IMG/VR virus record: IMGVR_UViG_3300029544_000210
Location: 20,406 to 84,405 of that record
Length of the DNA stretch: 64,000 nt
Source: a virus
Lineage: Duplodnaviria > Heunggongvirae > Uroviricota > Caudoviricetes
Direction: 5' to 3' (one strand)
In this document: in pieces, positions 16,114-40,930 of the stretch
Layout of the letters: the number at the start of each line of letters is the position of its first letter
Position numbering within the stretch: the first letter of the stretch is position 1
Translations under genes and position numbers: made by a program
Notes under the pieces: model-generated
The model's input: only the letters and a program-made list of their open reading frames with translations
What the model was told of the DNA's origin: nothing
The model's database searches: none

Positions 16114-16857
16114 TTAGAAATTTGGATAGAATGAAGGCATAAGCTGAAGCTTGAATAAATTCTTCTCATGCATTGAATCAATCTTCGCTTTTACATCCTC
16201 ATCATTAATCTCTCCTGTTCTGATATACCTATCAAGAGTGTCATAAGTGAATCCAAGGTTGTCCTCGTCAGTCTTTCCACAAAGACCGTCAGTAGGTGTC
16301 TTATCTACTAACTCAGATGGAAGTCCTAATTCACGACCAATCGCCTTAACTTCCGAAACTGTGAGCTGCGATAGTGGACTGAAATCACCTGCTGCGTCTC
16401 CATATCTGGTAGCATATCCTACCCAATCCTCTGAAAGATTACATGTATTTGCAACACGACCATTGATTGTCTGAGATACTGCATAAAGTGTAGCCATTCT
16501 GATACGAGCAGGAAGGTTTGTTGTTGTTTGTATAGATAAATTTTCGTCTAATGATGTTTTAATTTCATATTCAGCAACATTAACAATTGTTCCAATTGGA
16601 ATGATCGTTCGAGGAATATCTAAAAAGTTGCATAGCATATGACTATATTCGATATCAGATTGTCTTCCCTGCGGCATAAGTACACCAAACACTCTATCTT
16701 TCCCAAGAGCTTCTACACACAGAGCAGCTACAACGCTTGAGTCCTTACCTCCTGAAATTCCAACTACTGCATTACAATCCTTACCATTCTTATCAAACCA
16801 ATCTCTGATCCACTGTACTACTTCGTTCTTTACTGTCTTTACATCAAAATTACTCAT
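16114..16857 (-). CDS. nadE: NH3-dependent NAD+ synthetase
   Basis: PP-loop SGGKDS. TRYGDAAGDFSP and TPTDGL...DEDNLGFTYDTLD line up with the E. coli NadE motifs TKYGDGGTDINP and APTADLEDD...LGVTYDNIDD. Confidence 0.85.
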   Translation of the reverse strand: MSNFDVKTVKNEVVQWIRDWFDKNGKDCNAVVGISGGKDSSVVAALCVEALGKDRVFGVLMPQGRQSDIEYSHMLCNFLDIPRTIIPIGTIVNVAEYEIKTSLDENLSIQTTTNLPARIRMATLYAVSQTINGRVANTCNLSEDWVGYATRYGDAAGDFSPLSQLTVSEVKAIGRELGLPSELVDKTPTDGLCGKTDEDNLGFTYDTLDRYIRTGEINDEDVKAKIDSMHEKNLFKLQLMPSFYPNF

Positions 16858-17296
16858 GTTTTATCTCTCCTTTTTCAATCTTCTCAATCAATGTAAGTAA
16901 TTCATTGTATACCTGAATTAAACCGCCTCTGTCATCAATATAAACATTTGCATATATTTTTCTACCTGCAAAAGCTACAGATGCGTCACAATTGATACCT
17001 CTATACTTGATATTGTTGTCCTTTAGATACTGCTCAATCATTCCGTATTTATCTTCACCATTCCCAGTAAAAATAATTATCTCTGAATAATTCTCCCATC
17101 TTTGTAAAAGATTAATGACATTCTCATATGTCCTACCCTTCTTATGGAAATCATAAATCGTATCATCGAAATCTACACAAAAGATAAGCCTGCCATATTT
17201 CTTAAATTCTTCCTCTAATCTATTGTAGGAATTATTGGCTTGAAGATAAAAATCCATATTACTTTCCTCCATACATTCTGTTCCTAATGTCCTCAA
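16850..17296 (-). CDS. HAD-superfamily phosphatase-like protein
   Basis: DxDxT motif CVDFDDTIYDF near the N-terminus. Confidence 0.5.
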   Translation of the reverse strand: MRTLGTECMEESNMDFYLQANNSYNRLEEEFKKYGRLIFCVDFDDTIYDFHKKGRTYENVINLLQRWENYSEIIIFTGNGEDKYGMIEQYLKDNNIKYRGINCDASVAFAGRKIYANVYIDDRGGLIQVYNELLTLIEKIEKGEIKHE

Positions 17297-18761
17297 ATGT
17301 ATCCTCTCTTACTAATTCTCCATTCTTGAATACAGTTGTAAGCAAACTATCTTCATTCATATCGAGTAACTGATCCTGACACTTCAGTTCTCCATCTTCT
17401 TCATATACTTTGCAACACCCCTTATGAGATTTCTTTAAATGGCTTGTATCAGTCTTCGGATCTTTGAAGATCATAAGCCTCTTACCATCAATAACTCCAT
17501 AAGTAGCCTTCATTGCAATTCCAAAAGTATCTCTTGTAACAACAATCATCTTTCCATTCTCGACAATAGCTGTAAAACAAAATGCACCTACACCATAAGC
17601 AATGTTATTAGCTGCAAATCCACGCCTTTCTAACTCTCTCCAAATAGTCTCTACATTAGAAAGAGTACATCCGTCACCATAGATAATACCAATATGAGGA
17701 TCTAACACCTTATAACCCTTACCGTTGATAGAACCACCAAAGATATCCCATAATCTTTCTACTGTCTTAACTGAAATCTCTACAATATCACCACTGTCAG
17801 GACGAACAAGCAACTTGCCATTGTGATTCATAATCTCTTCCTTACACTGTGGAAGAATATTGTTTACCATATTCCAATAATCATAGGTATCTGAAACCAT
17901 ACTAAATGAAGTATTTGGATATAATTCTGTAAGTAATCTCTTAACGAATGTAATCTCATCACCATCAATTGAGTAATTTGCTCCCATTACGGAATGCTCT
18001 GTTGATACTGCACCAATTCCAATACCACTATTCTTACAATCAGCATTGTAATATTTATCAATATATGTAATGGCAGGAATAGTTGAAGTCTTATTGAAAG
18101 ATAATAACCATGAAGCAGAACATCTTGTAGCTTCGTCCATACAAGACATACCTCTCATACCAAAATCGGCACAAGCCATATTGCCAGGTAAACCGTCTGT
18201 TGTTTTGTTATACCAATAATCTGCAATCTCACGATACATATGACCAATAGTTGCGTGACAGCAAGGCTTCCATAATTCAACCTGAAGGATACACTCAATC
18301 CACTGAACAAGCCATGCAAATTTGTCATCTGTATTGGTAATTTCAATACAAGGAACTCCCATTGGTACAAGTGTTCCCTCTGGTAAAGCTCTAATTTTAA
18401 GTGGCAGATAACCAAGTCTGTGAAGTTCTACAATCTTCTCTAAGTCGTAATTATCTCTGCCAATCTGCACATCCATTGAATCTGTATAAAGAGATAACAT
18501 CTCATTCTCTGATAATTCAAAGAAATTCTTCTGGAAATATCCCATTAGATATTCCTTAATAAAAGCCTGTAATCCGAAGAAAACCATATGATTCTGATTT
18601 TCCAACATTGATTTACGAGGCACCCAATATGAGACTAACTTAGTTAATCCCTTTGGGTACATACGATCATGACACTGCTTATAAGTATCACTAAGTAATA
18701 AAGCCATTGTGTTATCCATAATTTTAAACCTCCATAACTGTAATCTTTTCATGACTACCAT
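17259..18761 (-). CDS. nicotinamide phosphoribosyltransferase family (NAMPT; Namat-like in the NARP1 context)
   Basis: 500 aa. Matches the human NAMPT layout throughout: DTYK, ALPEGTLVP, DFGMRG, VRPDSGD, IIYGDG, and C-terminal LLTTVFKNGELVREDTFEDIRNRM. Confidence 0.85.
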   Translation of the reverse strand: MVVMKRLQLWRFKIMDNTMALLLSDTYKQCHDRMYPKGLTKLVSYWVPRKSMLENQNHMVFFGLQAFIKEYLMGYFQKNFFELSENEMLSLYTDSMDVQIGRDNYDLEKIVELHRLGYLPLKIRALPEGTLVPMGVPCIEITNTDDKFAWLVQWIECILQVELWKPCCHATIGHMYREIADYWYNKTTDGLPGNMACADFGMRGMSCMDEATRCSASWLLSFNKTSTIPAITYIDKYYNADCKNSGIGIGAVSTEHSVMGANYSIDGDEITFVKRLLTELYPNTSFSMVSDTYDYWNMVNNILPQCKEEIMNHNGKLLVRPDSGDIVEISVKTVERLWDIFGGSINGKGYKVLDPHIGIIYGDGCTLSNVETIWRELERRGFAANNIAYGVGAFCFTAIVENGKMIVVTRDTFGIAMKATYGVIDGKRLMIFKDPKTDTSHLKKSHKGCCKVYEEDGELKCQDQLLDMNEDSLLTTVFKNGELVREDTFEDIRNRMYGGK

Positions 18762-19560
18762 TAAACAAACTGTTTGTAGTAAATAATCTGTTCACTGTAT
18801 TATTCTCCAAAGACTTGATCAACGTTCCTTTTTCTTTATCAAGAATTGAATTCTCTGTATGTGTTGCATACGCATAAATCTCAGTTACACCATGTTTCTT
18901 TAATTCTTCTGCGCTATAATAAAGTGAACCGCCATATGCGATAATATCATCAATCATTAACACAGCTTTGTCCTTCAAATCAATACCATTTGTTATAATG
19001 TCTAATCCAAGGATTTTGCCAGTCTTCCAATCTCTTTTCTTTTCACCATAACAATATGGTAACTCAGGGAATAAATCTGAATATCTCTTAGCTGCACCTG
19101 CGTCTGGGAAATAAAGTACAAGATTTCTCATGCCAATCTTTGAAATAGCTTTATCAACATACTCTTTTGGATTTTCTTTTACACAATTATTGAGTAATGC
19201 AGTAGAAACATCGCTATGAGCATCTAAAACATAAACTGATGAAAATCCTAACCAATTGATAAAATCGCAAAAATACTTCAATGTGAATACTTCATCATCA
19301 TTTTTTACTCTATCCATTCGTGCATTAGGAATATATGGAAGATATAAATAATAATCCACATTAGTAAAAAATCTTTCAAGATGTTTCCTTACTAACATCA
19401 GATAAAACATCTCATCGTTACTCTCATAAATCCATTCAATCCAAATGCAAGGAGAGCCATCATAAGTGTCTTCCTCAATGTTGTTTGTATCAATATTTAC
19501 TCTTGGTGTTCCATCTGGGAACTTGTTGATTGCTACAATTTCACCATTAATTTTAATCAT
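18724..19560 (-). CDS. ribose-phosphate pyrophosphokinase homolog (Prs-like; candidate ADPR-PP synthetase Adps)
   Basis: PRPP-binding loop VLMIDDIIAYGGSL. Shorter than cellular Prs (278 aa). Overlaps the NAMPT-like gene by 38 nt. Confidence 0.7.
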   Translation of the reverse strand: MIKINGEIVAINKFPDGTPRVNIDTNNIEEDTYDGSPCIWIEWIYESNDEMFYLMLVRKHLERFFTNVDYYLYLPYIPNARMDRVKNDDEVFTLKYFCDFINWLGFSSVYVLDAHSDVSTALLNNCVKENPKEYVDKAISKIGMRNLVLYFPDAGAAKRYSDLFPELPYCYGEKKRDWKTGKILGLDIITNGIDLKDKAVLMIDDIIAYGGSLYYSAEELKKHGVTEIYAYATHTENSILDKEKGTLIKSLENNTVNRLFTTNSLFNGSHEKITVMEV

Positions 19561-19563
19561 ATT

Positions 19564-20076
19564 CTACTCTCCAATCACGTTAATCTGACACATCTTCATT
19601 GTCTCTAATGCAGCCTTATGCGTCTCAGGTGTAACACCTGCACAGCAACTTGCATCCACTGTAATATCAATATTAGGATAATTTGCTCTAATCATAAGTG
19701 CATTTGACACTACACAAATGTCTGTACAAAGACCACAAACTTCTACTTCTGTAAAATCAAAATCATCCCAATGTGTCCATCCGAAAGTCGGCTTATCAAT
19801 AACTACGTCATTCTCAATATCAAAATCTAACTTATCTGAAATCTGCCATCCGATTGTATTTTTTACACAATGGACAACTGGGAGATGCTTTCCTTCATAT
19901 GTTTCTAAATAATTATTTGGGTGTGTATCTCTTGTAAAAATTACACTATCACCATTTTCTCTGTACTCCTTGATTTTCTTTGCCACATTAAGTACAATAC
20001 TCTGTGCTTCATTTGTGCCAAGTGAGCCATCAATAAAGTCATTCTGCATATCAATTACAATTAGTGTTTTACTCAT
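19564..20076 (-). CDS. isochorismatase-family hydrolase, PncA-like nicotinamidase
   Basis: VIDMQNDF (catalytic Asp) and CGLCTDICV (catalytic Cys). Confidence 0.7.
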   Translation of the reverse strand: MSKTLIVIDMQNDFIDGSLGTNEAQSIVLNVAKKIKEYRENGDSVIFTRDTHPNNYLETYEGKHLPVVHCVKNTIGWQISDKLDFDIENDVVIDKPTFGWTHWDDFDFTEVEVCGLCTDICVVSNALMIRANYPNIDITVDASCCAGVTPETHKAALETMKMCQINVIGE

Positions 20077-22068: not shown

Positions 22069-22815
22069 CTAAATCTCAAACAACTTCTCTACAGCTTTCT
22101 CACCTGTAACTCTATCTGACTTCTGTAACACTTTGCGTTCTTTCTGCCAGATACATTTAAAATCATCAGGCATATTATATTCACTTATCAACACTATATT
22201 ATTTTCTGAAAGTTTACGAAGAAAATCGTAGAATTCGCTATAGTCGATTGACTGTTTAGAATACTGTTTTGTATTTTTATAAGGTGGATCGAAGTAAAAG
22301 AGGCAGTTCTTATAATCTGCAAAGTCTTTGTAATCACAACATCTAAATTCAATATCATTTAAATCAGGAATTTGTGTTCTAAAATTCTTCAGTCTTTCAT
22401 TATAAATACTTCTACCACCCTTAGAATCTCTGCCATATCCACCATCAAAATATCTGCCACCATAAGATGCACAATATCCAATAAGTGCTATATACTCTTT
22501 TGAATACTTATGTGTTCCAAGTTTTCTATCTTCTCTCACATCGGCATAATGTTCAAATGTACATACATCTGGTGCAATAGATAAATCATTATCAGACTGA
22601 GCATATTTCAATAAAGCAATTAGTTCTTCATTAATGTCAGCCCCTATCTTCTTATCACATTTAATCTTATCAATTAAATTCGCTCCACCAACCATAGGTT
22701 CTATGTAAGTTTTAATATTATTGTCATCAATATACTTCTGAATAATTGGCACTAAAAATTTTGCCAATCTATTTTTACTTCCTTGATATACCATTCCATT
22801 ACCAGAAAGTGACAT
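22069..22815 (-). CDS. Dam-family DNA N6-adenine methyltransferase
   Basis: YQGSKNRL, EPMVGGANL (motif I), YFDPPY (motif IV). Paralog of 28735..29460. Confidence 0.75.
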   Translation of the reverse strand: MSLSGNGMVYQGSKNRLAKFLVPIIQKYIDDNNIKTYIEPMVGGANLIDKIKCDKKIGADINEELIALLKYAQSDNDLSIAPDVCTFEHYADVREDRKLGTHKYSKEYIALIGYCASYGGRYFDGGYGRDSKGGRSIYNERLKNFRTQIPDLNDIEFRCCDYKDFADYKNCLFYFDPPYKNTKQYSKQSIDYSEFYDFLRKLSENNIVLISEYNMPDDFKCIWQKERKVLQKSDRVTGEKAVEKLFEI

Positions 22816-22860
22816 GTCCTTAGTAGCTACCTAACTTTTTCCTTTCTGTTTTAATATTTT

Positions 22861-23685
22861 CTACTTCACATATAAACTTTCATACACAATACTATCATTT
22901 GATTTACCAATAGTACGCTTAAAGCTGCTATTACCACTAAGTAAATATTCGTGTCGTGTATATACATCTTCTGGAACATTCCATGTATTGTCTATATCCC
23001 CACTCTTACCATCGAATGATAAAGCATACTTGCAAGGTAAACTCCTCAAATAATTCCAAAACTTCTCATAATCAATTGTTCCATAATACATACCCTTTGT
23101 ATTGGCATAAGGTGGATCAAGATACAAGAAGTCGTTATCTGTTGGGTTAATATCTTCATAAGAACAACTGATAAACTCTACATTATTTTTCTTCAGCATA
23201 TGACTCCACTCAAAAATAATCTTTTCAAAAGTTTCAGGAATAATACCATTTCTTGTTACATGAAAAGAATTATTAAATTCACCATCACGATTATATCTTG
23301 GCATACCATTAGTAGTAGTTCTCATAATGAACATAAAATCTAATGGATTATGTTCTTTATTGTATCGTTCTCTTACACTTGCAAAATATTCTTTTTTACG
23401 TTGTTTGTCATCATCAACATTTAACTCATTCCAGAGTTTCTTATAATAAAAATAAACTTCTAATGGATTATTGATAATCTCTTTCCATAAATCAATTAAC
23501 CCGCTATTCAAATCACTACATACATAATGATTAACTTTGATGTCGCTATCTAATAATCTCCTTAATACAGACGCTCCACCACAAAACGGTTCATAATATG
23601 TATCAATTTCTTTTGGAAAGAATGTCAGTATCTTTTCTGCCTGACTTCTTTTACTTCCACTCCATTTAATTACTGGTTCGTACAT
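22861..23685 (-). CDS. Dam-family DNA N6-adenine methyltransferase
   Basis: IKWSGSKRS, EPFCGGASV, LYLDPPY. Confidence 0.8.
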   Translation of the reverse strand: MYEPVIKWSGSKRSQAEKILTFFPKEIDTYYEPFCGGASVLRRLLDSDIKVNHYVCSDLNSGLIDLWKEIINNPLEVYFYYKKLWNELNVDDDKQRKKEYFASVRERYNKEHNPLDFMFIMRTTTNGMPRYNRDGEFNNSFHVTRNGIIPETFEKIIFEWSHMLKKNNVEFISCSYEDINPTDNDFLYLDPPYANTKGMYYGTIDYEKFWNYLRSLPCKYALSFDGKSGDIDNTWNVPEDVYTRHEYLLSGNSSFKRTIGKSNDSIVYESLYVK

Positions 23686-24186: not shown

Positions 24187-25041
24187 CTACTCATTTATAT
24201 ATTCTCTCACTCTCTTATTTCCAACCTCAAAAATTTCCTTATCTTTCTCAAAACATATGTAATTCCTATTTGTATTCATAGCTGCAATCGCAGTTGTACA
24301 ACTTCCTGCACACGAATCAAGAACCAAATCACCTGGATTTGTGTATGTCTTGATAAAATACTCACACGCTTCAACAGGCTTTTGGCACTGATGTAAGCTA
24401 CTTTTCTGAGTATCCCATTTAAACTGCAAAACATCTCTTGGATATCTTTGTGTACTACCACCACCTGAAATACCAATCTTTGTAGCACCATAACAGTTAC
24501 CATCTGTTGTATGTTTTGTATAAGAATGAACAGGCGTATGTCCTTCTGTCATTTGTGGATTGTAAGTAGGGAGTTTCTTATAGAAAATCAAGACATTTTC
24601 GTGTGCCTTCATAGGCATTTTCTTAGCGTTTAGATGACCAGTTGCTTTGGTCTTTTCGATAATCCATTCATAGCGATATAGCTTTTCATTACTACAAGCG
24701 AGCCTCTTATCAAATGGTGACTGCGCCCATAATGCAATACAACCATTATCTTTGATAATTCGATTGTAGTGAGTCCATAAACCATCTTTTTTGTTCTCAT
24801 AAAACCAATCTCTTGTATATTCAAGACTGCTATCTATTACTTGAGCTAACTCGAACAAATCTGTTTCATAAAAATATTGACCTGATAATTCCACATAATC
24901 ATTTAACGGCATTTCACATTCCCAAGAATTATTAGTCGTATTATAAGGCAGATCCGTGAAGATGAAATCGACTGACTTATCATCAATCTTTTTCATACCT
25001 TCAAGACAGTCTTCGTTGTATATTTTGTTAATCTCTAACAT
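24187..25041 (-). CDS. beta-class N6/N4 DNA methyltransferase (pfam N6_N4_Mtase-like)
   Basis: Motif IV-like FTDLPYN precedes motif I VLDSCAGSCTT, which is the beta-class circular permutation. Confidence 0.65.
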   Translation of the reverse strand: MLEINKIYNEDCLEGMKKIDDKSVDFIFTDLPYNTTNNSWECEMPLNDYVELSGQYFYETDLFELAQVIDSSLEYTRDWFYENKKDGLWTHYNRIIKDNGCIALWAQSPFDKRLACSNEKLYRYEWIIEKTKATGHLNAKKMPMKAHENVLIFYKKLPTYNPQMTEGHTPVHSYTKHTTDGNCYGATKIGISGGGSTQRYPRDVLQFKWDTQKSSLHQCQKPVEACEYFIKTYTNPGDLVLDSCAGSCTTAIAAMNTNRNYICFEKDKEIFEVGNKRVREYINE

Positions 25042-28734: not shown

Positions 28735-29460
28735 TTACTTGGAATTTTTATTTTTATACATAAACAGCTTTTCTCTTCGAAAATCCTTAATGTTATTACA
28801 TTCTCTATTGCTGTCAAATGTAATCTTAACTTGTTTCTCCCAAATGCAATCAAAGTCATCTGGCATTGAATATTCACTTATAATGACAACATTATCTTTA
28901 GACATTTCTCTACACCATTGATAAAATTGTTCATATGGAAATTCACCTGTTTTGTATTTGGTTGTATTTTTATACGGTGGATCACAATATATTACATACC
29001 CATGTAAATTAGAATAATCTAAAAATGAAGCTGTTCTAAAATGGATATCTTTAAGATTTGGAGCTTGCTTCATGCATGATTTGTAAGAATAAATATCTCC
29101 CCGATGTTTAGCATCATCACGCTTTGCATAACCACCAAACCACTTTGCTCCAAAACTAAGTTCATATCCTATATACCCTGTTATAAAATCAGAATATTTG
29201 TCAGGATTATTTTTTACATCAATATAAAATTCTTTCGATACTTCTTTTGGTGGTTCAATTCCTTGCTGCAAACCAATAAGTACAGAAATTACATATTTAT
29301 CAATATCGCTTCCTATCTTATTGTCACATTCAATTTTATCAATAATATTTGCACCACCTACGAATGGTTCTAAATAACCATTGCATCCCTTGTCTATATA
29401 ATTCTGTATAATCGGTACAATTTGTTTTGATAACCGATTTTTGCTTCCCATGTAAATCAT
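28735..29460 (-). CDS. Dam-family DNA N6-adenine methyltransferase
   Basis: GSKNRL, EPFVGGANI, YCDPPY. Paralog of 22069..22815. Confidence 0.75.
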   Translation of the reverse strand: MIYMGSKNRLSKQIVPIIQNYIDKGCNGYLEPFVGGANIIDKIECDNKIGSDIDKYVISVLIGLQQGIEPPKEVSKEFYIDVKNNPDKYSDFITGYIGYELSFGAKWFGGYAKRDDAKHRGDIYSYKSCMKQAPNLKDIHFRTASFLDYSNLHGYVIYCDPPYKNTTKYKTGEFPYEQFYQWCREMSKDNVVIISEYSMPDDFDCIWEKQVKITFDSNRECNNIKDFRREKLFMYKNKNSK

Positions 29461-29517
29461 TATGTATCAGGAGTAAACGCTGCGTTTTCGGTATACCAAA
29501 CCTCTTACTCCTTTCTT

Positions 29518-30441
29518 TTATTCTCTTAACCCACTCAAAATCCATTCAATAGTAGGTTCATTCCATCCATTGCCCATCAAACTACATCTTTTTGAGTATG
29601 ATAACCAACGATTGTTAAGCTGAATTTTTGTAAAATTATCAGGCAATCCCTGTAATCTTTCATATTCAACTTCTGTAAGTTTTCGTGGTCTACCACTATC
29701 TAATACTTTCTTTTCGTGATATCCACCATTGATACAAGTCAATGTGCAGCACTTAAAATCTGGATTATAAATTCTTCTATTCATTTCCATAGAATTAACT
29801 TTTAACTCTGCGCATACACGTTTGTTCATATCCAAGATTTCAAAATCTTTCTTATAGAAATATTTCTCATCTACACTATTCTCCATAATATCTTTCAAAA
29901 CTAATGGAGATTCATCAGGTAATTTACCTAATGGTATGTTTGTCCAATAATATCTTTCACGATTTTGAGACGAAAATCTTCCTGAATCAATCAAAATAGG
30001 TTCTACACCAATACATTCTGTCATTGTCTTCAGATCTTCGTCACAACTTGGTATTACATTCTCAAACATGAAATATTTGGGCTGAATTGCCCTAAGACAC
30101 TCAATTGCTTTAAAGAAAATTCCTGACTTACCATCAAGACCATTATTGACCTCTTTGCTTTCAATTCGTACTCTTGAAATTGACTGGCAACAAGTTCCTG
30201 CCAACAGTAAATCAAATCCTTTGAACTGTTCAAAATCCGCTTCATATAAATCGCCATGATGTACCACAAACGGAAAATGGTACTGAGAAACTGCTATGGC
30301 TTCTGGCAAAATTTCATATGTATGATATTCTCTTATAGGTATTCCGAGCTGCTGTAACGCATACAATCCTGTTTCAACGCCACCACATAAACTTAACACT
30401 CGTAGCCCCTTGAGAATTATTTTTTCATTATTCTCTGTCAA
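29518..30441 (-). CDS. DNA (cytosine-5)-methyltransferase
   Basis: Motif I LSLCGGVETG, catalytic motif IV GTCCQSIS (PCQ-type Cys), and ENV (motif VI). Confidence 0.7.
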   Translation of the reverse strand: MTENNEKIILKGLRVLSLCGGVETGLYALQQLGIPIREYHTYEILPEAIAVSQYHFPFVVHHGDLYEADFEQFKGFDLLLAGTCCQSISRVRIESKEVNNGLDGKSGIFFKAIECLRAIQPKYFMFENVIPSCDEDLKTMTECIGVEPILIDSGRFSSQNRERYYWTNIPLGKLPDESPLVLKDIMENSVDEKYFYKKDFEILDMNKRVCAELKVNSMEMNRRIYNPDFKCCTLTCINGGYHEKKVLDSGRPRKLTEVEYERLQGLPDNFTKIQLNNRWLSYSKRCSLMGNGWNEPTIEWILSGLRE

Positions 30442-30951: not shown

Positions 30952-31404
30952 CTAAAATGCAGTACCACTCTCACCCTGATTAATTTCTTTACACTTCTGA
31001 TCACACTCTTCCAATGTCTTAAACAAAGAAGTCTCTCCTCTATTTCTTACATTTACATATTCTCCAACAGAATTAACTTTATATTTAATTGTGGTTACAT
31101 CATTCCAAATACTAGCCACAATTCTTCTAATTTTAACTTTATGAGGTACAACCACTGTCTGTTTACATACAATCTTCCCTGTTGTATTACACTGTTTACA
31201 TGGAATTTCATATCCGTTGTAAAGAATCTTCTTTGTTCCTTTACATATTGGACAAATAATTTCTACATTTTCTCTTGCGTATGTATAACATTCTTCCCCA
31301 ATTTCAAACTTATTGTCTATTGTTTTCATTTTAAAATACCTCCTAATATAATAAATAATGTGCCATACGAGGTTTGAACTCGTAACATCTTGATTAAAAG
31401 TCAA
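30952..31404 (-). CDS. zinc-ribbon hypothetical protein
   Basis: CPICKG...CKQCNTTGKIVCKQ. Confidence 0.4.
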   Translation of the reverse strand: MTFNQDVTSSNLVWHIIYYIRRYFKMKTIDNKFEIGEECYTYARENVEIICPICKGTKKILYNGYEIPCKQCNTTGKIVCKQTVVVPHKVKIRRIVASIWNDVTTIKYKVNSVGEYVNVRNRGETSLFKTLEECDQKCKEINQGESGTAF

Positions 31405-31431
31405 GTGCTCTACCTATTGAGATAATGGCAC
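31359..31431 (-). tRNA. tRNA-Lys (anticodon UUU)
   Basis: Minus-strand cloverleaf. Acceptor GTGCCAT/ATGGCAC, anticodon stem CTTGA/TCAAG with loop CTTTTAA, T-arm ACGAG-TTCAAAC-CTCGT. The D/anticodon region is close to E. coli tRNA-Lys. No encoded CCA. Confidence 0.8.
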
Positions 31432-31435
31432 ACAG

Positions 31436-31507
31436 CTAGGATGGTGGGATTCGAACCACGAATGTCAGAATCAAAATCTGATGTGTTGACCACTTCACCA
31501 CATCCCA
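31436..31507 (-). tRNA. tRNA-Gln (anticodon UUG), with an atypical T-arm
   Basis: Minus strand. Acceptor TGGGATG/CATCCTA (one G-U pair), D-arm GTGA...CAC, anticodon stem TCAGA/TCTGA with loop TTTTGAT, T-loop TTCGAAT. The T-stem pairs imperfectly (only 4 bp, or an 8-nt loop). Confidence 0.55.
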
Positions 31508-31553: not shown

Positions 31554-32423
31554 TTACTTATCTGTTACAACTGTATTGTTAGTTCCAGAAATAGTAACCC
31601 AACCAAATTTATTTCTTGCTTCGGCTTCCTTCATTCTTATAAGCTCATCTGTAATAGAAGAACTTAACTTATTATTCGCCTCTGCCTGTGCTTTAGCTTC
31701 GATTAACTGTGCATCAGCCTTTGCTTGTGCTTCTGCCTTAGTTACTTCTGCATCAGCCTTTGCCTTATTAATAGCTGTCTGATTATTAATTTCCTGAGTT
31801 TCGGCTGCCTGCTGTGCTGTAATCTTTGCATTAATAGCTTCCTGTGTCTTTGTATCAACGGAAATATTAATCAATGATACATTACTAATCGCTATACCAT
31901 ATGGTTCAAACTTCTTATTAAGATAATCAGTTAATGCTGTATTTACATTTGCTCTTTCAGAACCAAGAATATCTGACACCTTATAGTTAGCAACAATTTC
32001 TTTAGTCCAAGAAATAATGTTAGGTTTAATAAAACTGTCTCTTACTTCCTTTCCAGATTGTCCTCTAAATCTTGTAAATAGATCAGCTACCTTATCAGGA
32101 CTATACTGATATGTAAATGTAAGATCTATCTGCATAGCCTTACCCTCAGATGAACTCGCTGAAAAGCTGTCATCATCTTTAGAGTCTCCGTCCTTACCAG
32201 ATGTTAAATAACTCTGTTCAAGACTCACCGAGTAAAGTGTCGTTTTTACAGTTGGTGACTTTAAATGCCATCCTTGTGTAAGAATATCGCCTTTTACTCC
32301 ACCCGACATACTGTACTGTACGGCAATATAGCCAGCAGGTACACGCACACTTGACATAAATAATAATATTGCTACAACAACAATTACTACTACTGTTACT
32401 ACTCCTCCGATTGTTTTCTTCAT
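31554..32423 (-). CDS. SPFH/band-7 (prohibitin/HflK-like) membrane protein
   Basis: N-terminal TM helix, then PAGYIAVQYSMSGGVKGDILTQGWHLKSP, typical of PHB/SPFH domains. C-terminal Ala/Lys/Glu-rich coiled coil. Confidence 0.65.
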   Translation of the reverse strand: MKKTIGGVVTVVVIVVVAILLFMSSVRVPAGYIAVQYSMSGGVKGDILTQGWHLKSPTVKTTLYSVSLEQSYLTSGKDGDSKDDDSFSASSSEGKAMQIDLTFTYQYSPDKVADLFTRFRGQSGKEVRDSFIKPNIISWTKEIVANYKVSDILGSERANVNTALTDYLNKKFEPYGIAISNVSLINISVDTKTQEAINAKITAQQAAETQEINNQTAINKAKADAEVTKAEAQAKADAQLIEAKAQAEANNKLSSSITDELIRMKEAEARNKFGWVTISGTNNTVVTDK

Positions 32424-32581
32424 TCTTTTGTCTCCTTTTCTTCGTTATTATTTATTTCATCTGTCGAAAATACTTTATTTATAACATTGATAACAAACTT
32501 ACCAATTTTTTCAAATAAAGGTGACAGTAGAAACCATAAAATTATTAATCCTATTAAAACTAATATAAAAAATACTGACAT
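32420..32581 (-). CDS. small membrane protein (~52 aa), translationally coupled to the SPFH gene (ATGA overlap)
   Basis: Minus-strand ORF MSVFFILVLIGLIILWFLLSPLFEKIGKF..., not in the supplied track (under 60 aa). Its stop overlaps the SPFH start codon. Confidence 0.4.
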   Translation of the reverse strand: MSVFFILVLIGLIILWFLLSPLFEKIGKFVINVINKVFSTDEINNNEEKETKE

Positions 32582-32694
32582 TTAACTATTCTCCTTTTCG
32601 TATTATATTTTTCTTCCATTAGCTTGATAATCTCAACATTTCTGTAGTATATATTGAATAATCATTTTACTGAGTAAAATGTTGTCTTAACCGT

Positions 32695-32796
32695 GTTTTG
32701 TATCTATGTTAAATTAAACATATCTAAAACAAAGAACATAGTATATTGTTGGTTAAAGTAGTTTTGTATCTATGTTAAATTAAACATATCTAAAAC
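32695..32796. CRISPR. mini CRISPR-like array 1: two 36-nt direct repeats (GTTTTGTATCTATGTTAAATTAAACATATCTAAAAC) flanking one 30-nt spacer
   Basis: Exact 36-nt repeat at 32695..32730 and 32761..32796. Spacer 32731..32760 is AAAGAACATAGTATATTGTTGGTTAAAGTA. Lies directly downstream of the Cas12/TnpB-like gene's 3' end. Confidence 0.75.
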
Positions 32797-32900
32797 CTCA
32801 AATCACACAGATACTATTAACATAGATTCTAACGAGTGCCATTAATTAACAACCTCGCCATTCAGGTGCAAAATCACCTGCAATCTTACGATTGATTAAG
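32797..32900 (-). ncRNA. candidate tracrRNA/omegaRNA-like scaffold 1 (conserved in all three cassettes; contains an anti-repeat)
   Basis: Begins CTCAAA right after the repeat. Contains TTAACATAGAT, complementary to ATCTATGTTAA inside the repeat. Shares CTCAAA...ACATAGATT...GAGTGC...AAAAT...GCAAT...GATTGAT blocks with 34479..34560. Sits where a TnpB omegaRNA would be, abutting the gene's 3' end. Confidence 0.55.
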
Positions 32901-32906
32901 TAGCAC

Positions 32907-34295
32907 TTAAGCTACTTTATTATTCTCTGAACCATTCTTACTTTGTTCATATTTTTCAGAGATATCATAATATTCTCTTGCTTCCTGTTTACTCTTTTCA
33001 GTAACTTGTCCACTTCCCATCCAAAGAGTTGACATTGCAATGTTTCTGGCAGCATTGAAGTCTGCATTAAAACCAGTTTTTTCATATTTTTTATGACTAT
33101 CACAATTCTCATTTGCACATTCAAATACTGACTGTGACTTTCTCTGACCAAACTCCCAATTACCACATACACTACAAATCTGTGATGTATAACAAGGATT
33201 GATTTTTCTTACTTCTATTCCGTATTTAGCTGCTTTATATGTAATATAATCTTGAAGTTTATAATAACTCCAATTTCTCAGGATAAAATCACTTGTATCA
33301 TATCCTGTTAAATTCTCAATATTTATGTATTTAGCATTATGTTTTAAAGCAAAATCAACGACTCTTTTACTTATCATATGACAATATGTTTCAACAAAAT
33401 GTACTTCTGCTTTCTGCAATCTTTCTAATGCTTTCAGTTTCTTTGCTCTACCATGACCACCAGAAGTATTTCGTAATGACTTCTGTAATCTTTTTCTCTG
33501 AGCTTGCATTTTAGTTCTTATTCTTAGAAAATCATCTGCATTTCCAATTGCCAATCTCTCGTAAAGATTATTGTTTAAAGCACACATAGCAGGAACTGCA
33601 ATGCCTAAATCAACACCTACTACTATATTTTCATCCAGCTCTCTAAGTTGTTTTGGAATAGATATTGAGAGATTTAAAATGATTGACTTACCATCAATTT
33701 CAATGCTACTTCCTTGCACTTTATAATTCTCTTCTAATATATTCTGAATAACAGATCTTAACTCTAATGACCTATGCGGATTGCCAAACACAACCTTAAA
33801 TACAATTTTATTAACCCACTTGACATATACCGCCAAATCAGAATCATTAATCTTGTCTAAAAAATCATGATATGTTTCATACTCATGATAAAAAGTTAAG
33901 TTTCTGCCTCTTGTAATAAGTGGATTAGTTCTCTTATAATTTGTTACAGTTCGTTCACCTTTAGCCAATCCATTCTTTAAAGCTGTGCTGAAATCCTGCT
34001 TGACTTTCTGAGTAACGGCTGATGGAGTGTCTACACCAGTTGCAAAATCAATATCTTTTAATATGATATTAGAGTTTGTCATTATTTCTTTCTGTCTTGC
34101 CTTAAATTCTTCATTCTTAATATCACGATTATATTTGTAATATTCACTCATAAGCTGTCCCATAAGCAGGTTACAAGCCTGATATTGAGCATACTGACCA
34201 TTTCTAATAAAGTTATATACTCTATTGATTTCATCCTTATCTCCTACTGGAAATAATTTAATTTTTCTACAAATTGTCATTCTATTGTTTCCCAT
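32907..34295 (-). CDS. TnpB / Cas12-like RuvC nuclease (462 aa), candidate compact type V effector
   Basis: RuvC-I VGVDLGIAVP; RuvC-II KYINIENLTGYD; zinc finger CYTSQICSVCG...C..ENC; RuvC-III FNADFNAARNIAM (the DxNAAxNI signature of TnpB/Cas12). No TnpA (Y1 HuH) ORF nearby. Confidence 0.85.
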   Translation of the reverse strand: MGNNRMTICRKIKLFPVGDKDEINRVYNFIRNGQYAQYQACNLLMGQLMSEYYKYNRDIKNEEFKARQKEIMTNSNIILKDIDFATGVDTPSAVTQKVKQDFSTALKNGLAKGERTVTNYKRTNPLITRGRNLTFYHEYETYHDFLDKINDSDLAVYVKWVNKIVFKVVFGNPHRSLELRSVIQNILEENYKVQGSSIEIDGKSIILNLSISIPKQLRELDENIVVGVDLGIAVPAMCALNNNLYERLAIGNADDFLRIRTKMQAQRKRLQKSLRNTSGGHGRAKKLKALERLQKAEVHFVETYCHMISKRVVDFALKHNAKYINIENLTGYDTSDFILRNWSYYKLQDYITYKAAKYGIEVRKINPCYTSQICSVCGNWEFGQRKSQSVFECANENCDSHKKYEKTGFNADFNAARNIAMSTLWMGSGQVTEKSKQEAREYYDISEKYEQSKNGSENNKVA

Positions 34296-34376
34296 AATTT
34301 GTAAATCTCCTTTTATATTTTTTGTAATTTTAAATATCTCTAAAATTAAACAGCTTACAAGTACAACAACGCAAGT

Positions 34377-34478
34377 GTTTTATACCTATGTAATTTTATA
34401 TGTATCTAAAACTTCTATATCTTCAACAATTTCAACAGGTTTGTTTTATACCTATGTAATTTTATATGTATCTAAAAC
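34377..34478. CRISPR. mini CRISPR-like array 2: two 36-nt repeats (GTTTTATACCTATGTAATTTTATATGTATCTAAAAC) flanking one 30-nt spacer
   Basis: Exact repeats at 34377..34412 and 34443..34478. Spacer 34413..34442 is TTCTATATCTTCAACAATTTCAACAGGTTT. The repeat shares GTTTT...ATCTAAAAC termini with array 1. Confidence 0.75.
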
Positions 34479-34560
34479 CTCAAACTTATTACATAGATTT
34501 TCATGAGTTGCATTGCACTCACGATTCGGCAGTAAAATCTACCGCAATAGAATTGATTTT
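34479..34560 (-). ncRNA. candidate tracrRNA/omegaRNA-like scaffold 2
   Basis: CTCAAACTTATTACATAGATTTTCATGAGTTGCATTGCACTCACGATTCGGCAGTAAAATCTACCGCAATAGAATTGAT. Contains the anti-repeat ATTACATAG (complementary to the repeat's CTATGTAAT) and a short hairpin TGAGT..ACTCA. Confidence 0.5.
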
Positions 34561-34585
34561 AATTTCATTTATATATTCTTTTAAT

Positions 34586-34741
34586 GAGATGTAATTTTAT
34601 ATACTTCTAAAAATTTATAACTTGTGTCGATACATATTATGTAATTTTGCTAGTATGTAACTATACTTCCAAAACAACTGAAACATCTCCTCTCTGTTGC
34701 CAGATATTTTGTTAGTATGTAATTTCATATACTTCCAAAAC
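34586..34741. CRISPR. degenerate mini-array 3: three imperfect ~25-35-nt repeats (..GTAATTT(T)ATATACTTCCAAAAC) with ~27- and 31-nt spacers
   Basis: Repeat-like copies at 34586..34613, 34641..34675 and 34707..34741. Spacers 34614..34640 and 34676..34706 (AACTGAAACATCTCCTCTCTGTTGCCAGATA). Confidence 0.5.
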
Positions 34742-34840
34742 TTCAAATTACATATAAATTACATACTTTTCAGTGAGTGATATAATCCTCACTATTCGGA
34801 CTCAAAATAGCCCGTAGTCAAAAGACTAATTGTTATAGGA
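34742..34840 (-). ncRNA. candidate tracrRNA/omegaRNA-like scaffold 3
   Basis: TTCAAATTACATATAAATTACATACTTTTCAGTGAGTGATATAATCCTCACTATTCGGACTCAAAATAGCCCGTAGTC... AAATTACATACT is an exact 12-nt complement of the array-3 repeat core. Hairpin GTGAG..CTCAC. Ends with ATTCGG..CAAAAT..G blocks shared with scaffold 2. Confidence 0.5.
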
Positions 34841-35507
34841 TAAACTGGCTTGAATTAGCCAAATAGATTTGTTATAATAGAACATATATAGTTTATCCTA
34901 TATTTTATTCTCTGAGCAGATTGTTTAGGTCGGTAAACTTGTGCAATCTGTTCTCTTCTATTTAATATCTTCCCAATCGGTTTCATCCTTATCATTAGCA
35001 AAATTCATGAATAAGTGAATATATAATTCAATAATTCGCTCCTTTGATAAGGCTTGTAACTGTTTTCTAAGTTCATTTCGCTTATTTGTATCTTTATCCA
35101 TTTTATTATTCTCCTGTATTTTAGCATCTTACTAACAAGCTACTTATATCATCAGCAAGTACTTCTCTGTCAGTAACAATCCATTGACACCTAAAATCTC
35201 TATCTGCACATAACGAAGTAAAATCAGCATAACTTTGTATCTTATCTGGCTTTGCTATTGCTCTATAACACTGTTTTCTTCTTTCACATGTTTTGCTTGT
35301 ACACATTGTAATATCTGGCATAGTTATTTTTCTCCCTTATACTCTTTTAAAATATCCTGTAAATTGCTATAGTGTGTATACATAAATTGACCATACCCAT
35401 TATCTTTTTTGAATCCGTCTAATTGCATATATAAACAAATATCAGACAAGGTTTCCATTATTTCAATTTGCATTTTCTTTTTTAATACAATACTTTTTAA
35501 CAATGTT

Positions 35508-37052
35508 TTAATTAACACTAGCTGTTCTTCCTTTCTCCATATTATTTAAGAAATTTATGTAATTATCAAAATCTCTCTTCATATATCTATAATTTACTTC
35601 CTGCGAAGAACTATATGTCTTATCAATTGAATTCTTCTGATACTGTTCAATCCAAGTTGCAAGTTCTTCATCCTTATCAGTTTTATAAGCATAAGCTGTT
35701 AATGCCATTAACGCTGCTTCACACTGTTTATATAACGATGAATTTATATCAATATATACATCAACAAAATCTTGATATTCACTTATATCTTCATTCTCTA
35801 TATCTTCTGCCACACTATTTTGAACAAACTGTAATACATCAGAACTACCCGTATTCTGTTCTGATATATTACTATCTGTTTCATCGTCTTCATTAGAAGA
35901 CATAGTATTATTCTCTGTTTCAGAGATAATTTGTACTGTGTTTTCTGTTGTATTTTCAACAACTTCTTCGATTTCTGAATGAGTTTCTTCCTTATTTATA
36001 TGTAAATATTCTTCCATAAGCTTAGTAACCATATCTAACTTAGCCATTACAACTTTTTTATCCTTTGTGCTTCGGTTGCTATCATATGTATCAAATGATT
36101 CATTATCATATTCTTTAAATGTCTTGCTATGTAATATTCCCTGAAATTCATTTAAGAAATCAGCAAATTTAATATCTTCTATGTTATATGAAGTAAACTT
36201 ATGAAAAGCTGCCAACCAAATAAAGCTATTCTTGCTATTAAATAACTGTCCGTTAGTATCTTGATCTATTACTTTTTGTAATCTATTAAGTTCCTCTTCT
36301 AATATATTGAATTCCTCTTCTGCGGCATTTTCATTAAGATACTTAGCCATAGCTACGTTTTTCTTCCAAGAATCAGAATGGAACATTAACATTAATGACT
36401 CTTCAACTACTCTATTTAATACTTCTTTCTTTCTTTCAGGTGCTGTATATTCACCACAGTCCAAGAAGAATCTATTCTTTGTAACCCTTTTAAGTGAATC
36501 TACCACTTTATACATCATCAAAACATTTTTCTGATTTGTATTCATACTTGTCTGCTTATTATATCTATCAATATGATAAGCTATCTCTTCATTAGTACAA
36601 TCAAGATGCTTAACTATATCTACCTGGAAATTATCAAATTCTTCTCTTAACTCATCTGGAAGGTCTTTGTATTTCTTACCTCTTAAATCATACTCAACAA
36701 CATTACCACTTCCATCTTCAGCTTGATAAGCTATCATAGACATTCTCAATGATTTTCCCATTGCAAAGACATTATTTTTAAACTCTTCCAATACAGTTAA
36801 TCTCTGTAATCCATCAATAAGCCAGTTTGTGAAACTATTTTCGTAAATCTGTTCACATAATTTAATTGAATCAATATCTTCATGTTTAATTACACTGGCA
36901 GCAAGTCCAGATTTTGCTTCGTCCGACCACTGATCAGGTTTTCTCTGTAATGGATGATTCTTATTGATTACATTTGTTCTAAACTGCTTAATCACCGTTC
37001 CTAACATTAATTGTGTCTTTACTACCTTATCTCTTCCTAACATTACTGCCAT
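35508..37052 (-). CDS. DUF262 / ParB-like nuclease-superfamily protein (514 aa)
   Basis: LIDGLQRLTVL matches the DUF262 DGQQR-type motif seen in GmrSD/DndB/BrxU-like proteins. Acidic Ser/Asp/Glu-rich C-terminal region. Confidence 0.55.
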   Translation of the reverse strand: MAVMLGRDKVVKTQLMLGTVIKQFRTNVINKNHPLQRKPDQWSDEAKSGLAASVIKHEDIDSIKLCEQIYENSFTNWLIDGLQRLTVLEEFKNNVFAMGKSLRMSMIAYQAEDGSGNVVEYDLRGKKYKDLPDELREEFDNFQVDIVKHLDCTNEEIAYHIDRYNKQTSMNTNQKNVLMMYKVVDSLKRVTKNRFFLDCGEYTAPERKKEVLNRVVEESLMLMFHSDSWKKNVAMAKYLNENAAEEEFNILEEELNRLQKVIDQDTNGQLFNSKNSFIWLAAFHKFTSYNIEDIKFADFLNEFQGILHSKTFKEYDNESFDTYDSNRSTKDKKVVMAKLDMVTKLMEEYLHINKEETHSEIEEVVENTTENTVQIISETENNTMSSNEDDETDSNISEQNTGSSDVLQFVQNSVAEDIENEDISEYQDFVDVYIDINSSLYKQCEAALMALTAYAYKTDKDEELATWIEQYQKNSIDKTYSSSQEVNYRYMKRDFDNYINFLNNMEKGRTASVN

Positions 37053-39913: not shown

Positions 39914-40930
39914 TCACATATTATTTAGTACATTTTTCATTCCCACTGCTCCATTTGCATAATTTTTGACAGTTGTTTTTACACTACTATGCCCAAGCTG
40001 CTGTTGTACGAATGCAAGATTTCCATTTTGATTCATTACAGTAGCATAATAATGTCTCATCATATGTGCAGTAATACCATTTCCGTAATTTTCAAATATC
40101 TGCTTAATATTTTTCTCTGTTGTACGTGTTCCGTTTTTATTAATAAAAACTGCTTCTGTATCAATAATATTATCCAATGTCAACCTATACTCTAACCACT
40201 CTTTCAATGCTTTTAAGGCTGATCCGCTAAGATATACGGTTCTATTTTGCATTTCTCTGTACACACCTTTGCCAAGAATAGTAATGTATGGCATTTCTTC
40301 CTTCAAATGTAAATCAGATAAATCTAAGCCAGCAAGCTCTGACTCTCTTATACCAGTGCCCCTTAATACCCTAAAGATAGCAATATTCCTATTTTTTACT
40401 GCAATATCCTTTTTCCACATTATCTTCTCTTCCATGTCATTAAGCTGCTTTTCTGTTGGAAGTTTTTTTATTAAGTTGTTTCCAGATGGGATTCCCTTAT
40501 ATTTAATCATTTTGTAAAAATCTTCTATATTACTATAAACTTCTCTTAACAAACACTCTCTGTATGAATAAATATCCTGTATAAAACTTTTAATGATATT
40601 TTTCCTTGTTTCTGTTGTGGTTGGTGACATTCCATTTGTTTCCTTATATCTAAGATATGAACTAATATTTTGTGGTCTTAGGTCATTAAAATCAGAAACT
40701 TCTATTTCAGAAATTGATTTCTTATTAATAATATTACTTTCAATCAACCACTGTAAAAAATCTTTAATTGCCACTAAATAATTTAGCGCTCCGTTTTTGC
40801 TTTCCAACTCATTTAAGTAATCTCTTAAAAATTGTGGTGCATTTAACTCATCTAATTTTTTATTAAGCTTCTCCGCATTTTTATTCTGCACTTCTATTTT
40901 ATAACACATTATCATCAACCTACCTTTCAT
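39914..40930 (-). CDS. tyrosine recombinase / phage integrase family
   Basis: C-terminal HMMRHYYATVM...LGHSSVKTTVKNY catalytic box (R..H-R-H..Y). Confidence 0.8.
   Translation of the reverse strand: MKGRLMIMCYKIEVQNKNAEKLNKKLDELNAPQFLRDYLNELESKNGALNYLVAIKDFLQWLIESNIINKKSISEIEVSDFNDLRPQNISSYLRYKETNGMSPTTTETRKNIIKSFIQDIYSYRECLLREVYSNIEDFYKMIKYKGIPSGNNLIKKLPTEKQLNDMEEKIMWKKDIAVKNRNIAIFRVLRGTGIRESELAGLDLSDLHLKEEMPYITILGKGVYREMQNRTVYLSGSALKALKEWLEYRLTLDNIIDTEAVFINKNGTRTTEKNIKQIFENYGNGITAHMMRHYYATVMNQNGNLAFVQQQLGHSSVKTTVKNYANGAVGMKNVLNNM

Follow-up and report, generated by a model that had tools for sequence, protein, structure and literature searches.

What does a phage do with a miniature RuvC nuclease that has no transposase beside it and is flanked on both sides by short repeat-spacer units? 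This question is raised by a gene at positions 32907..34295 (minus strand) of a 64,000-nt stretch of the IMG/VR virus record IMGVR_UViG_3300029544_000210 (Caudoviricetes; positions 20,406 to 84,405 of the record), and this whole stretch is hereafter called the window. A preliminary description made from the sequence had placed the 462-aa product between TnpB and Cas12f/Cas12n, and had suggested a role in inter-phage competition or host takeover. The analysis presented here indicates that the gene probably encodes the effector of a phage-borne type V-F1 CRISPR-Cas12f1 system directed against resident plasmids and plasmid-like elements. The observations that carry this reading are the family membership of the protein, the arrays and their turnover, the covariation of anti-repeats with repeats, the targets, and the protospacer adjacent motif (PAM).

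The nuclease is a regular Cas12f1

The open reading frame (ORF), cas12f1, starts with an ATG preceded by an AAAGGAG ribosome-binding site. Its 462 residues fall inside the published Cas12f size range of 422-603 aa (PMC7229846) and carry the full RuvC triad already read from the sequence; in an alignment of 47 homologues, the catalytic residues are D229 (VGVDLGI), E327 (INIENL), and D412 (NADFNAARNIA). The CxxC..CxxC zinc finger of the preliminary description holds for the first cysteine pair (C374-x2-C377) and not for the second, which is of the Cx4C type (C393-x4-C398). In Pfam, the protein matches Cas12f1-like_TNB (E = 1.7e-15) with OrfB_IS605 staying below threshold, and in NCBIfam it scores 161 bits against the guided_TnpB subfamily (cut-off 100). 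The NCBIfam Cas12f2 model is matched in part, at 107 bits against a cut-off of 450, and the protein is thus not of type V-F2. The PADLOC profile Cas12u3 matches with an E value of 7.3e-111; Cas12u3 is the former name of the bacterial branch of Cas12f1, and type V-F1 was formerly known as V-U3.

A sequence search of PDB gave CnCas12f1 (8HR5, E = 7.8e-88) and RhCas12f (9NZP, E = 1.8e-81; identified as RhCas12f through PMC13186708) as the top matches, with Al3Cas12f, AsCas12f, and Un1Cas12f as further best matches and ISDra2 TnpB reaching only 2.3e-3. An AlphaFold2 model was built on the 47 homologues (predicted local distance difference test 88.4, predicted template modelling score 0.79). In the Foldseek comparison with PDB, ranks 1-24 were all occupied by Cas12f chains, the best being CnCas12f1 8HR5_A (E = 4.9e-33, template modelling (TM) score 0.70, 38% identity), and TnpB appeared first at rank 25 (TM 0.53, 13% identity); Cas12n, Cas12k, Cas12m, and Cas-lambda gave distant fold matches only. 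The profile and structure comparisons that had been proposed for this gene thus both put Cas12f in first place. By sequence, profile, and fold the protein is a regular Cas12f1 (V-F1/V-U3) of the C-rich-PAM subgroup of CnCas12f1 and RhCas12f1, instead of the intermediate between TnpB and Cas12f/Cas12n first suggested, and every feature that could be checked agrees with membership of type V-F1/V-U3. The Cas12 'hacker'/Cas12p (bioRxiv 2025.01.20.633832; PDB 9JFS), a protein of 741 aa, was considered as an identity and rejected at E = 2.4e-3.

In a sub-clade 65-73% identical to the window protein, the RuvC-I aspartate has been lost (D229N or A). The homologues concerned (P0019, P0021, P0022, P0026, P0037, and P0105 in the alignment of 47), two of which also alter D412, may be naturally nuclease-dead Cas12f proteins acting as binders instead of cutters.

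Three scaffold-array cassettes surround the gene

The locus extends over approximately 32695-34953, lies entirely on the minus strand, and comprises two cassettes upstream of the gene (A and B) and one downstream (C), which confirms the earlier observation of repeat-spacer units on both gene sides. In all three arrays, the repeats are 36 nt and the spacers 30 nt long, and no further cassettes were found in the 64-kb window.

Cassette C occupies the canonical site between cas12f and its array. Scaffold C (32797..32918, minus), which resembles a trans-activating CRISPR RNA (tracrRNA), has one hairpin across the stop codon and another of the sequence CAATC-GTAA-GATTG, stem 1 (CAGGTG-ATTTTG-CACCTG), stem 2 (GGCGAGG...CACTCGTT), and the anti-repeat ATCTATGTTAATAGTATCTGT. 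It is followed by array C (32695..32796, minus), in which perfect repeats at 32796-32761 and 32730-32695 (GTTTTAGATATGTTTAATTTAACATAGATACAAAAC) enclose spacer C1 (32760-32731, minus). Scaffold A (34742..34823, minus) is likewise tracrRNA-like, with stem 1 ACGGGCT-ATTTT-GAGTCC, a second stem GAAT-AGTGAGG...CACTCAC, and the anti-repeat GTATGTAATTTATATGTAATTTGAA, for which pairing with almost all of repeat A is predicted. Array A (34578..34741, minus) holds one intact repeat (34741-34706, GTTTTGGAAGTATATGAAATTACATACTAACAAAAT) and decayed repeat copies down to 34578; its spacer A1 (ATCTGGCAACAGAGAGGAGATGTTTCAGTT, 34705-34676, minus) is common to sister phages. In the tracrRNA-like scaffold B (34479..34552, minus), stem 1 is GCGGTAG-ATTT-TACTGCC, stem 2 is GAATCGTGAG...ACTCATG, and the anti-repeat is ATCTATGTAAT. 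Array B (34311..34478, minus) has perfect repeats at 34478-34443 and 34412-34377 (GTTTTAGATACATATAAAATTACATAGGTATAAAAC) and a decayed terminal repeat (34346-34311, minus) extending into the ribosome-binding site of cas12f. Spacer B1 (34442-34413, minus), the newest in the window, was found in the window phage alone, and spacer B2 (34376-34347, minus) is old and shared. Upstream of scaffold A, a conserved structured non-coding stretch (34824..34953, minus) with a CAGATTG...CAATCTG hairpin and a long stem (AGGATAAACT...AGTTTATCCT) could serve as a leader/promoter region or extend tracr A in the 5' direction. An Rfam search of 32000-35500 at E<=1 returned no family, and no DNA match to the locus was found in GenBank phages.

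The number and content of the cassettes differ among relatives. L020 and L022, IMG/VR contigs with orthologues of ~50% identity, have up to 5-6 scaffold and mini-array cassettes downstream of the gene (5460-6490), each with its own repeat variant. In L053, a mouse-gut phage (orthologue P0089), the gene is followed by the conserved scaffold and one decayed repeat-like unit with no array (11254-11400), which may be a fixed single guide similar to an omega-RNA or a decayed array. The window has a tRNA-Lys(ttt) and a tRNA-Gln(ttg) at 31358-31507 (minus), 1.2 kb downstream of array C, and in the sister phage L013 a tRNA-like sequence directly follows array C.

The scaffolds are tracrRNA-like and covary with their repeats

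The scaffolds share a common design, in which a first stem with an ATTTT-type loop is followed by a second stem of the form GAA-n-GTGAG...CTCAC, a short A-rich linker, a complement of the own repeat, and TTTGAG directly before the first repeat. This two-stem scaffold precedes every array in ~25 related loci. Both stems were predicted by RNAalifold from 30 non-identical scaffolds, with compensatory changes in nine of 12 pairs. The 5' half resembles the published tracrRNAs of the C-rich-PAM nucleases Rh, Cs1, Bc2, and Cb3 Cas12f1, which have a GATTT-type loop stem followed by GAA-GGTGAG...CTCAC (PMC10090079 Supplementary Data 1).

Complementarity between anti-repeat and repeat covers most of the repeat in cassettes A and C, and cassette C together with its first repeat and spacer folds with -47.4 kcal/mol (z = -3.4). 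Since duplex energies discriminated only moderately between cognate and non-cognate partners, position-wise covariation was used. With the anti-repeat anchored on the invariant TGT and the repeat on a fixed register, a 14-bp helix was counted across 40 distinct cassettes. In this helix, 78% of the cells pair, compared with 65% in shuffles, and the covariation score of 0.376 compares with 0.141 in shuffles (reached in 0 of 500) and falls to 0.105 or less on shifting the partner by 1-3 columns. Of the column pairs, one is found as CG 26, GC 8, and AU 3 times, and another as AU 15, UG 10, UA 8, and CG 4 times. Judged by these pairing patterns, the scaffolds behave as tracrRNAs in which each anti-repeat covaries with its own repeat.

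Arrays of sister phages show polarised spacer turnover

A scan of IMG/VR for orthologues returned 24 viral contigs of 7-186 kb, 18 of which encode a protein 95-100% identical to that of the window, and contigs from Hadza gut metagenomes carry an orthologue of 87% identity. More distant orthologues lie between the terminase/minor-capsid and scaffold genes of 42-45 kb mouse-gut phages, another was found on a 233-kb phage-like contig of an NCBI metagenome-assembled genome, and metagenomes hold more than 1,600 homologous proteins. The clade is thus phage-borne across very different genome sizes, from ~42 to ~233 kb. The window itself, of 31% GC and with a one-directional transcription layout, has ORFs matching 76 PHROG families. 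The location of the gene in a phage genome, as first described, is borne out by the IMG/VR viral contigs, these PHROG matches, and the orthologues in phage structural modules.

The arrays of sister loci with a 95-100% identical Cas12f have 1-4 repeats each, with 36-nt repeats and 29-31-nt spacers, and contain 59 distinct spacers by automatic parsing and 66 when those read by eye are added. Trailer-end spacers are common to sister phages and scaffold-proximal ones are unique. In array B, for example, the trailer spacer ACTTGCG... is common to the window, L001, L002, and L018 and the scaffold-proximal spacers differ, and array A is polarised likewise in L002, L013, L014, and L017. Sister phages vary in spacer content, and not in the presence or absence of a bounded element. 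The repeats, which had been expected to behave as arrays in related genomes, are genuine CRISPR arrays with polarised turnover at the scaffold-proximal end. In addition, one target site has been sampled on both strands by different phages.

The spacer GTAAAAGGAAAGTGGTCTGATGCTGATCTT occurs twice in tandem in array B of L002 (3723-3818) and once in array C of L018 (5536-5565), which implies either that repeats mediated its duplication and its exchange between cassettes or that it was acquired repeatedly. No target was found for it, and a scan with the recurrent spacer GTAAAAGG... matched arrays only.

Spacers match a small plasmid and a plasmid-like element next to a CCA motif

Spacer C1 (TACTTTAACCAACAATATACTATGTTCTTT) matches five human-gut metagenome contigs over 30 of its 30 positions, beside a 5'-CCA. 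One of these, L038, is 2610 bp long with a 77-nt terminal overlap, giving a circle of ~2533 bp with 27% GC, and this plasmid encodes a 308-aa Rep3_N/Rep3_C initiator. Three sister-phage spacers located in cassettes A and B likewise match the Rep_3 plasmid perfectly, and a fifth spacer matches it with 6-7 mismatches. The protospacers cluster in or near the rep gene and in a conserved non-coding, origin-like region. Two further spacers, overlapping and on opposite strands, match the gene of a 192-aa tyrosine recombinase on a 28.6-kb IMG/VR contig. Further genes of this contig specify a TubZ-like partition protein, a serine recombinase, a CI-like repressor, an HNH nuclease, and sigma factors of the extracytoplasmic function type, and the contig has the appearance of a plasmid or phage-plasmid.

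A 5'-CCA precedes each of the seven protospacers. As CCA has a frequency of 0.0065 in the plasmid and of 0.010 in the 28.6-kb element, the probability of this by chance is ~1e-15, and we infer a C-rich PAM, 5'-CCA, for the window system. RhCas12f1 has the PAM 5'-NCCD, with CCA the best, and its relatives are predicted to use NCCA (PMC10090079). As CCA is the PAM expected for this Cas12f subgroup, it ties the arrays to the window nuclease.

No self-targets were seen, either in the window or in the flanks of related loci. The 66 spacers, searched as a concatenate, had no match in 50,697 GenBank phages or in PLSDB plasmids, and when four spacer patterns were scanned against IMG/VR, the TubZ element provided the only protospacer outside arrays. 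A collection scan for ACTTGCGTTGTTGTACTTGTAA missed the L001 contig, although L001 3920-3941 holds the exact pattern, and negative collection scans are therefore weak evidence and not proof of absence. The earlier suggestion of host takeover finds no counterpart in these data: no match to any spacer was obtained in the window, in its relatives, or in 185,579 species genomes, and the targets that could be identified are not host genes. A conflict between mobile elements was recovered, with a small plasmid and a plasmid-like element in place of phages as the identified targets.

In small plasmids of Waltera intestinalis, Mediterraneibacter gnavus, Butyricicoccus, and Clostridium perfringens, unannotated regions show 71-79% identity to a 340-nt non-coding region of the target plasmid (L039 1578-1920). 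This region may be an origin or an RNA element that the plasmids have in common, and the similarity hints that the host belongs to a gut clostridial lineage. Contig L037 (1-9156) was considered as a sign of a Bacteroides host and rejected as a probable assembly chimera; it joins the 27%-GC Rep_3 plasmid to Bacteroides-like glycoside-hydrolase genes of far higher GC.

Proposed mechanism and source of spacers

By analogy with relatives, the cassettes and the gene would be transcribed together in the gene direction, and each of the three cassettes would give rise to a tracrRNA-like scaffold and a repeat-spacer RNA. The anti-repeat of a scaffold would pair with its own repeat, and for the first spacer this could take place in cis, resulting in a natural single-guide RNA. 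Cas12f1, presumably as an asymmetric homodimer on one guide RNA as in the solved relatives (8HR5, 9NZP), would load this RNA, read the 5'-CCA (NCCN-type) PAM, and use its single RuvC site to cut double-stranded DNA that matches. The targets that could be identified, the ~2.5-kb Rep_3 plasmid and the 28.6-kb TubZ/integrase element, would be extrachromosomal replicons in the same gut bacteria, and the phage would gain in conflict with resident plasmids as competitors, parasites, or defence carriers; this benefit is deduced solely from the identity and recurrence of the targets. Spacers are renewed at the scaffold-proximal end with PAM-correct protospacers. An RNA-guided nuclease on a mobile element, as the preliminary description had it, is supported, and the spacers point to inter-element conflict.

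Of the Pfam families Cas1, Cas2, and Cas4, none was detected among the 103 window ORFs at E<=1e-5, and a degenerate pattern covering repeats A, B, and C had no match in 185,579 species-representative genomes, so that no host array was identified that could lend adaptation machinery through shared repeats. V-U3 loci are typically without adaptation genes (PMC7229846), and phage-borne V-F/V-U systems lacking adaptation modules have been documented (PMC7162821). A bolder and rather doubtful proposal is that the locus is a multi-guide weapon, in which whole tracrRNA-array cassettes with mutually adapted, partly orthogonal anti-repeat/repeat pairs were duplicated in place of lengthening a single array, and in which spacers are renewed in a polarised, PAM-correct manner with neither a Cas1-Cas2 of the phage's own nor host arrays of the same repeat. 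It would imply an unrecognised integration route, either a borrowed, unrelated host module or a phage recombinase, and the targets would be phage parasites or defence carriers as in the ICP1-PLE conflict.

Several points weigh against a phage CRISPR system aimed at plasmids. No source of spacer integration was found among the window genes or in the 185,579 species genomes. Only one of the four window spacers has an identified target and only 6-8 of the ~66 spacers of the family could be placed: B1 gave nothing in IMG/VR or the GTDB species genomes, for B2 and A1, the IMG/VR scan yielded only arrays of related phages, and none of the four matches GenBank phages or PLSDB. The plasmid spacers may reflect an acquisition bias instead of selection, as high-copy plasmids are favoured donors generally. 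The duplex energies of cognate and non-cognate pairs (-15.2 and -10.8 kcal/mol) are moderately separated, with the cognate repeat the best partner in four of ten rows, and the covariation counts are not independent events because the cassettes arose by duplication. A scan for promoters and terminators stayed at chance level, which is uninformative as the DNA is AT-rich. Finally, no structural genes (capsid, terminase) lie in the window, so that its phage status is indirect.

Alternative explanations

One alternative is that an ordinary IS200/IS605 TnpB gene has landed in a phage, its downstream RNA being an omega-RNA and the repeats incidental. The guided_TnpB score (161 bits, cut-off 100) and the weak OrfB_IS605 match would fit such an origin, as would the structured RNA that begins at the 3' end of the ORF in the manner of an omega-RNA and the label 'transposase' given to the family in PHROGs. 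However, the 64-kb window has a single TNB-domain protein and, as described before, no IS200/605 TnpA: no Y1 HuH domain (Y1_Tnp) was detected among its 103 ORFs at E<=1e-5. The best matches in sequence and fold are all Cas12f with TnpB far lower (PADLOC Cas12u3, E = 7e-111), downstream of the 3' RNA lie repeat-spacer-repeat units whose spacers are gained and lost among near-identical phages, and array spacers match foreign replicons with a PAM. Sister phages show spacer differences and no insertion boundary, and in a partial test for a bounded element of the IS200/IS605 type no empty site was found among them. An IS605 TnpB with insertion sequence ends, a nearby tnpA, and repeats that do not behave as arrays, the combination that would have spoken for an ordinary transposon gene, was thus looked for and not encountered, and we consider this explanation barely credible. 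It is nearly as hard to accept that the arrays act as decoys for a host CRISPR system or hijack it, as viral mini-arrays or RNA anti-CRISPRs that employ host Cas proteins, and that the gene next to them is unrelated. Many viral mini-arrays do act in this way (PMC11656645), and the present arrays are very short with 1-4 repeats, but the repeat A/B/C pattern is unmatched in the 185,579 species genomes, arrays and scaffolds always accompany cas12f in ~25 loci, and the PAM deduced from the targets is that expected for this Cas12f subgroup (PMC10090079).

If the nuclease is indeed guided by these arrays, it might bind without cutting and act as a roadblock for transcription or replication, similar to Cas12m, dCas12f, or TldR-type proteins. 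The loss of D229 (to N or A) in the sub-clade of 65-73% identity and the position of plasmid protospacers near the rep gene and the origin-like region would be compatible with this, but the window protein retains D229, E327, D412, and the zinc finger, and its closest solved relatives, CnCas12f1 and RhCas12f1, are active nucleases on double-stranded DNA (PMC10090079), which makes a binding role very unlikely. A stronger competitor, if still an improbable one, is that the system is functional and its true role is to exclude competing phages during co-infection, the plasmid spacers being by-products of acquisition. Adaptation over-samples high-copy plasmids, and some 58 of the 66 spacers have no identified target and could match phages that are scarce in the collections searched. 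Published phage-borne arrays, moreover, target mostly other phages (PMC7162821, PMC11656645). On the other hand, 0 of 66 spacers match the 50,697 GenBank phages, and the IMG/VR scans of four spacer patterns gave the TubZ element as the lone non-array protospacer. One 2.5-kb plasmid is matched perfectly by four independent spacers that belong to different phages and cassettes, and a single site of the TubZ element by two more, a convergence that looks like recurrent selection. A phage-borne Cas12f1 system acting on resident plasmids and plasmid-like elements is thus the explanation we prefer.

Relation to known systems

The system belongs to the same family as the bacterial CnCas12f1 (8HR5), RhCas12f1, Cb3Cas12f1, and Cs1Cas12f1 of Clostridia and Bacilli, sharing their fold, catalytic residues, and zinc finger, as well as the locus order of nuclease gene, tracrRNA, and array in the absence of cas1 and cas2. 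The 5' C-rich PAM is also alike, with CCA deduced here, NCCD for RhCas12f1, and NCCA predicted for the others. In contrast to the chromosomal bacterial loci, the window system is carried by a phage, and its repeats are 36 nt (GTTTTAGA...AAAAC), whereas the bacterial ones are 29-30 nt and end in GGAATGTAAAT. Missing from the phage scaffold is the AAGGGTTAA-plus-stem module found ahead of the anti-repeat in bacterial Cas12f1 tracrRNAs. The window system also differs in that it has three cassettes, two of them upstream of the gene, and relatives have up to six; every cassette has an anti-repeat/repeat pair of its own.

Cas12f-like proteins have been noted in oral huge phages (PMC12297358), and the V-F, V-U, and Cas-Phi systems of huge phages (Al-Shayeb et al. 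2020, PMC7162821) resemble the present one in the type V effector, the catalytic residues, and the compact arrays, in having no Cas1, Cas2, or Cas4, and in a presumed role in conflict between elements. The cassette architecture of this clade is not described there, and the targets reported are mostly other phages or host genes for transcription and translation, compared with a small plasmid and a plasmid-like element here.

The type I-F CRISPR-Cas system of the Vibrio phage ICP1 acts against the PLE satellite, and its spacers turn over between isolates (reviewed in PMC11656645). The likeness lies in a lytic-type phage using its own CRISPR against a host-resident mobile element and in the spacer turnover. 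ICP1, however, has a complete multi-subunit system that includes an adaptation module and is directed at a known anti-phage satellite, compared with a miniature single effector and no adaptation genes in the window. ISDra2 TnpB (8H1J/8EXA) shares ancestry, the RuvC-zinc-finger core, and a structured RNA from the 3' end of the ORF preceding the guide, but the similarity is far weaker (E = 2e-3 in sequence, TM 0.53). Unlike IS200/IS605 TnpB, the window system has no TnpA or transposon ends, its guides are exchangeable array spacers, and in place of an omega-RNA the guide is split into tracrRNA and CRISPR RNA (crRNA) with an anti-repeat duplex.

Neighbouring genes on the carrier phage

The neighbours of cas12f encode an unannotated 514-aa protein, a sigma-like protein, an SPFH protein, and methyltransferases, and the window also holds an RNA ligase and a Sak4-like annealing protein. 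The 514-aa protein (35508-37052, minus) lies ~550 nt upstream of the start of the locus and has no Pfam or PHROG match; by eye only, a DGLQR motif at its N-terminus recalls ParB/DUF262-type nucleases. A tyrosine recombinase of 338 aa (39914-40930, minus; Phage_integrase, E = 1.2e-27, with a SAM-like N-terminal domain) may indicate that the phage is temperate, or may serve dimer resolution as in a plasmid-like prophage. A cluster for NAD metabolism (16114-20076, minus) comprises an NAD synthase (16114-16857), a nicotinamide phosphoribosyltransferase (17259-18761), a protein similar to phosphoribosyltransferase/phosphoribosyl pyrophosphate synthetase (18724-19560), and an isochorismatase/nicotinamidase-like protein (19564-20076), and in composition it resembles the NAD+ reconstitution pathways by which phages counter NAD-depleting defences. 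At least seven DNA methyltransferase genes were found, four D12 N6-adenine, one C5-cytosine, one N6_N4, and one large fused type (sites at 13927-14757, 22069-23685, 24187-25041, 28735-30441, and 57439-59073), and judged by this gene content, the accessory region appears heavily invested in evading restriction.

Significance

Neither the effector family and its mechanism nor the occurrence of V-F systems on phages is new. In the literature searched, we found no description of several co-evolved tracr-array cassettes around one Cas12f, of recurrent targeting of a small Rep_3 plasmid by a phage V-F system, or of active polarised spacer turnover in such a system. If the reading is true, a widespread family of human and mouse gut phages carries a compact C-rich-PAM Cas12f1 with ready-made guide scaffolds, and the locus would be among the clearest computational cases of a phage CRISPR system directed against plasmids rather than phages. 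The multiple cassettes with co-evolved anti-repeats bear on the diversification of tracrRNA and crRNA and on multiplex guide design, and leader-end turnover with correct PAMs in a region with no adaptation genes sharpens the question of how V-U3 systems acquire spacers. The system would thereby provide a concrete case of phage-plasmid antagonism in gut Clostridia-like hosts that is open to experiment.

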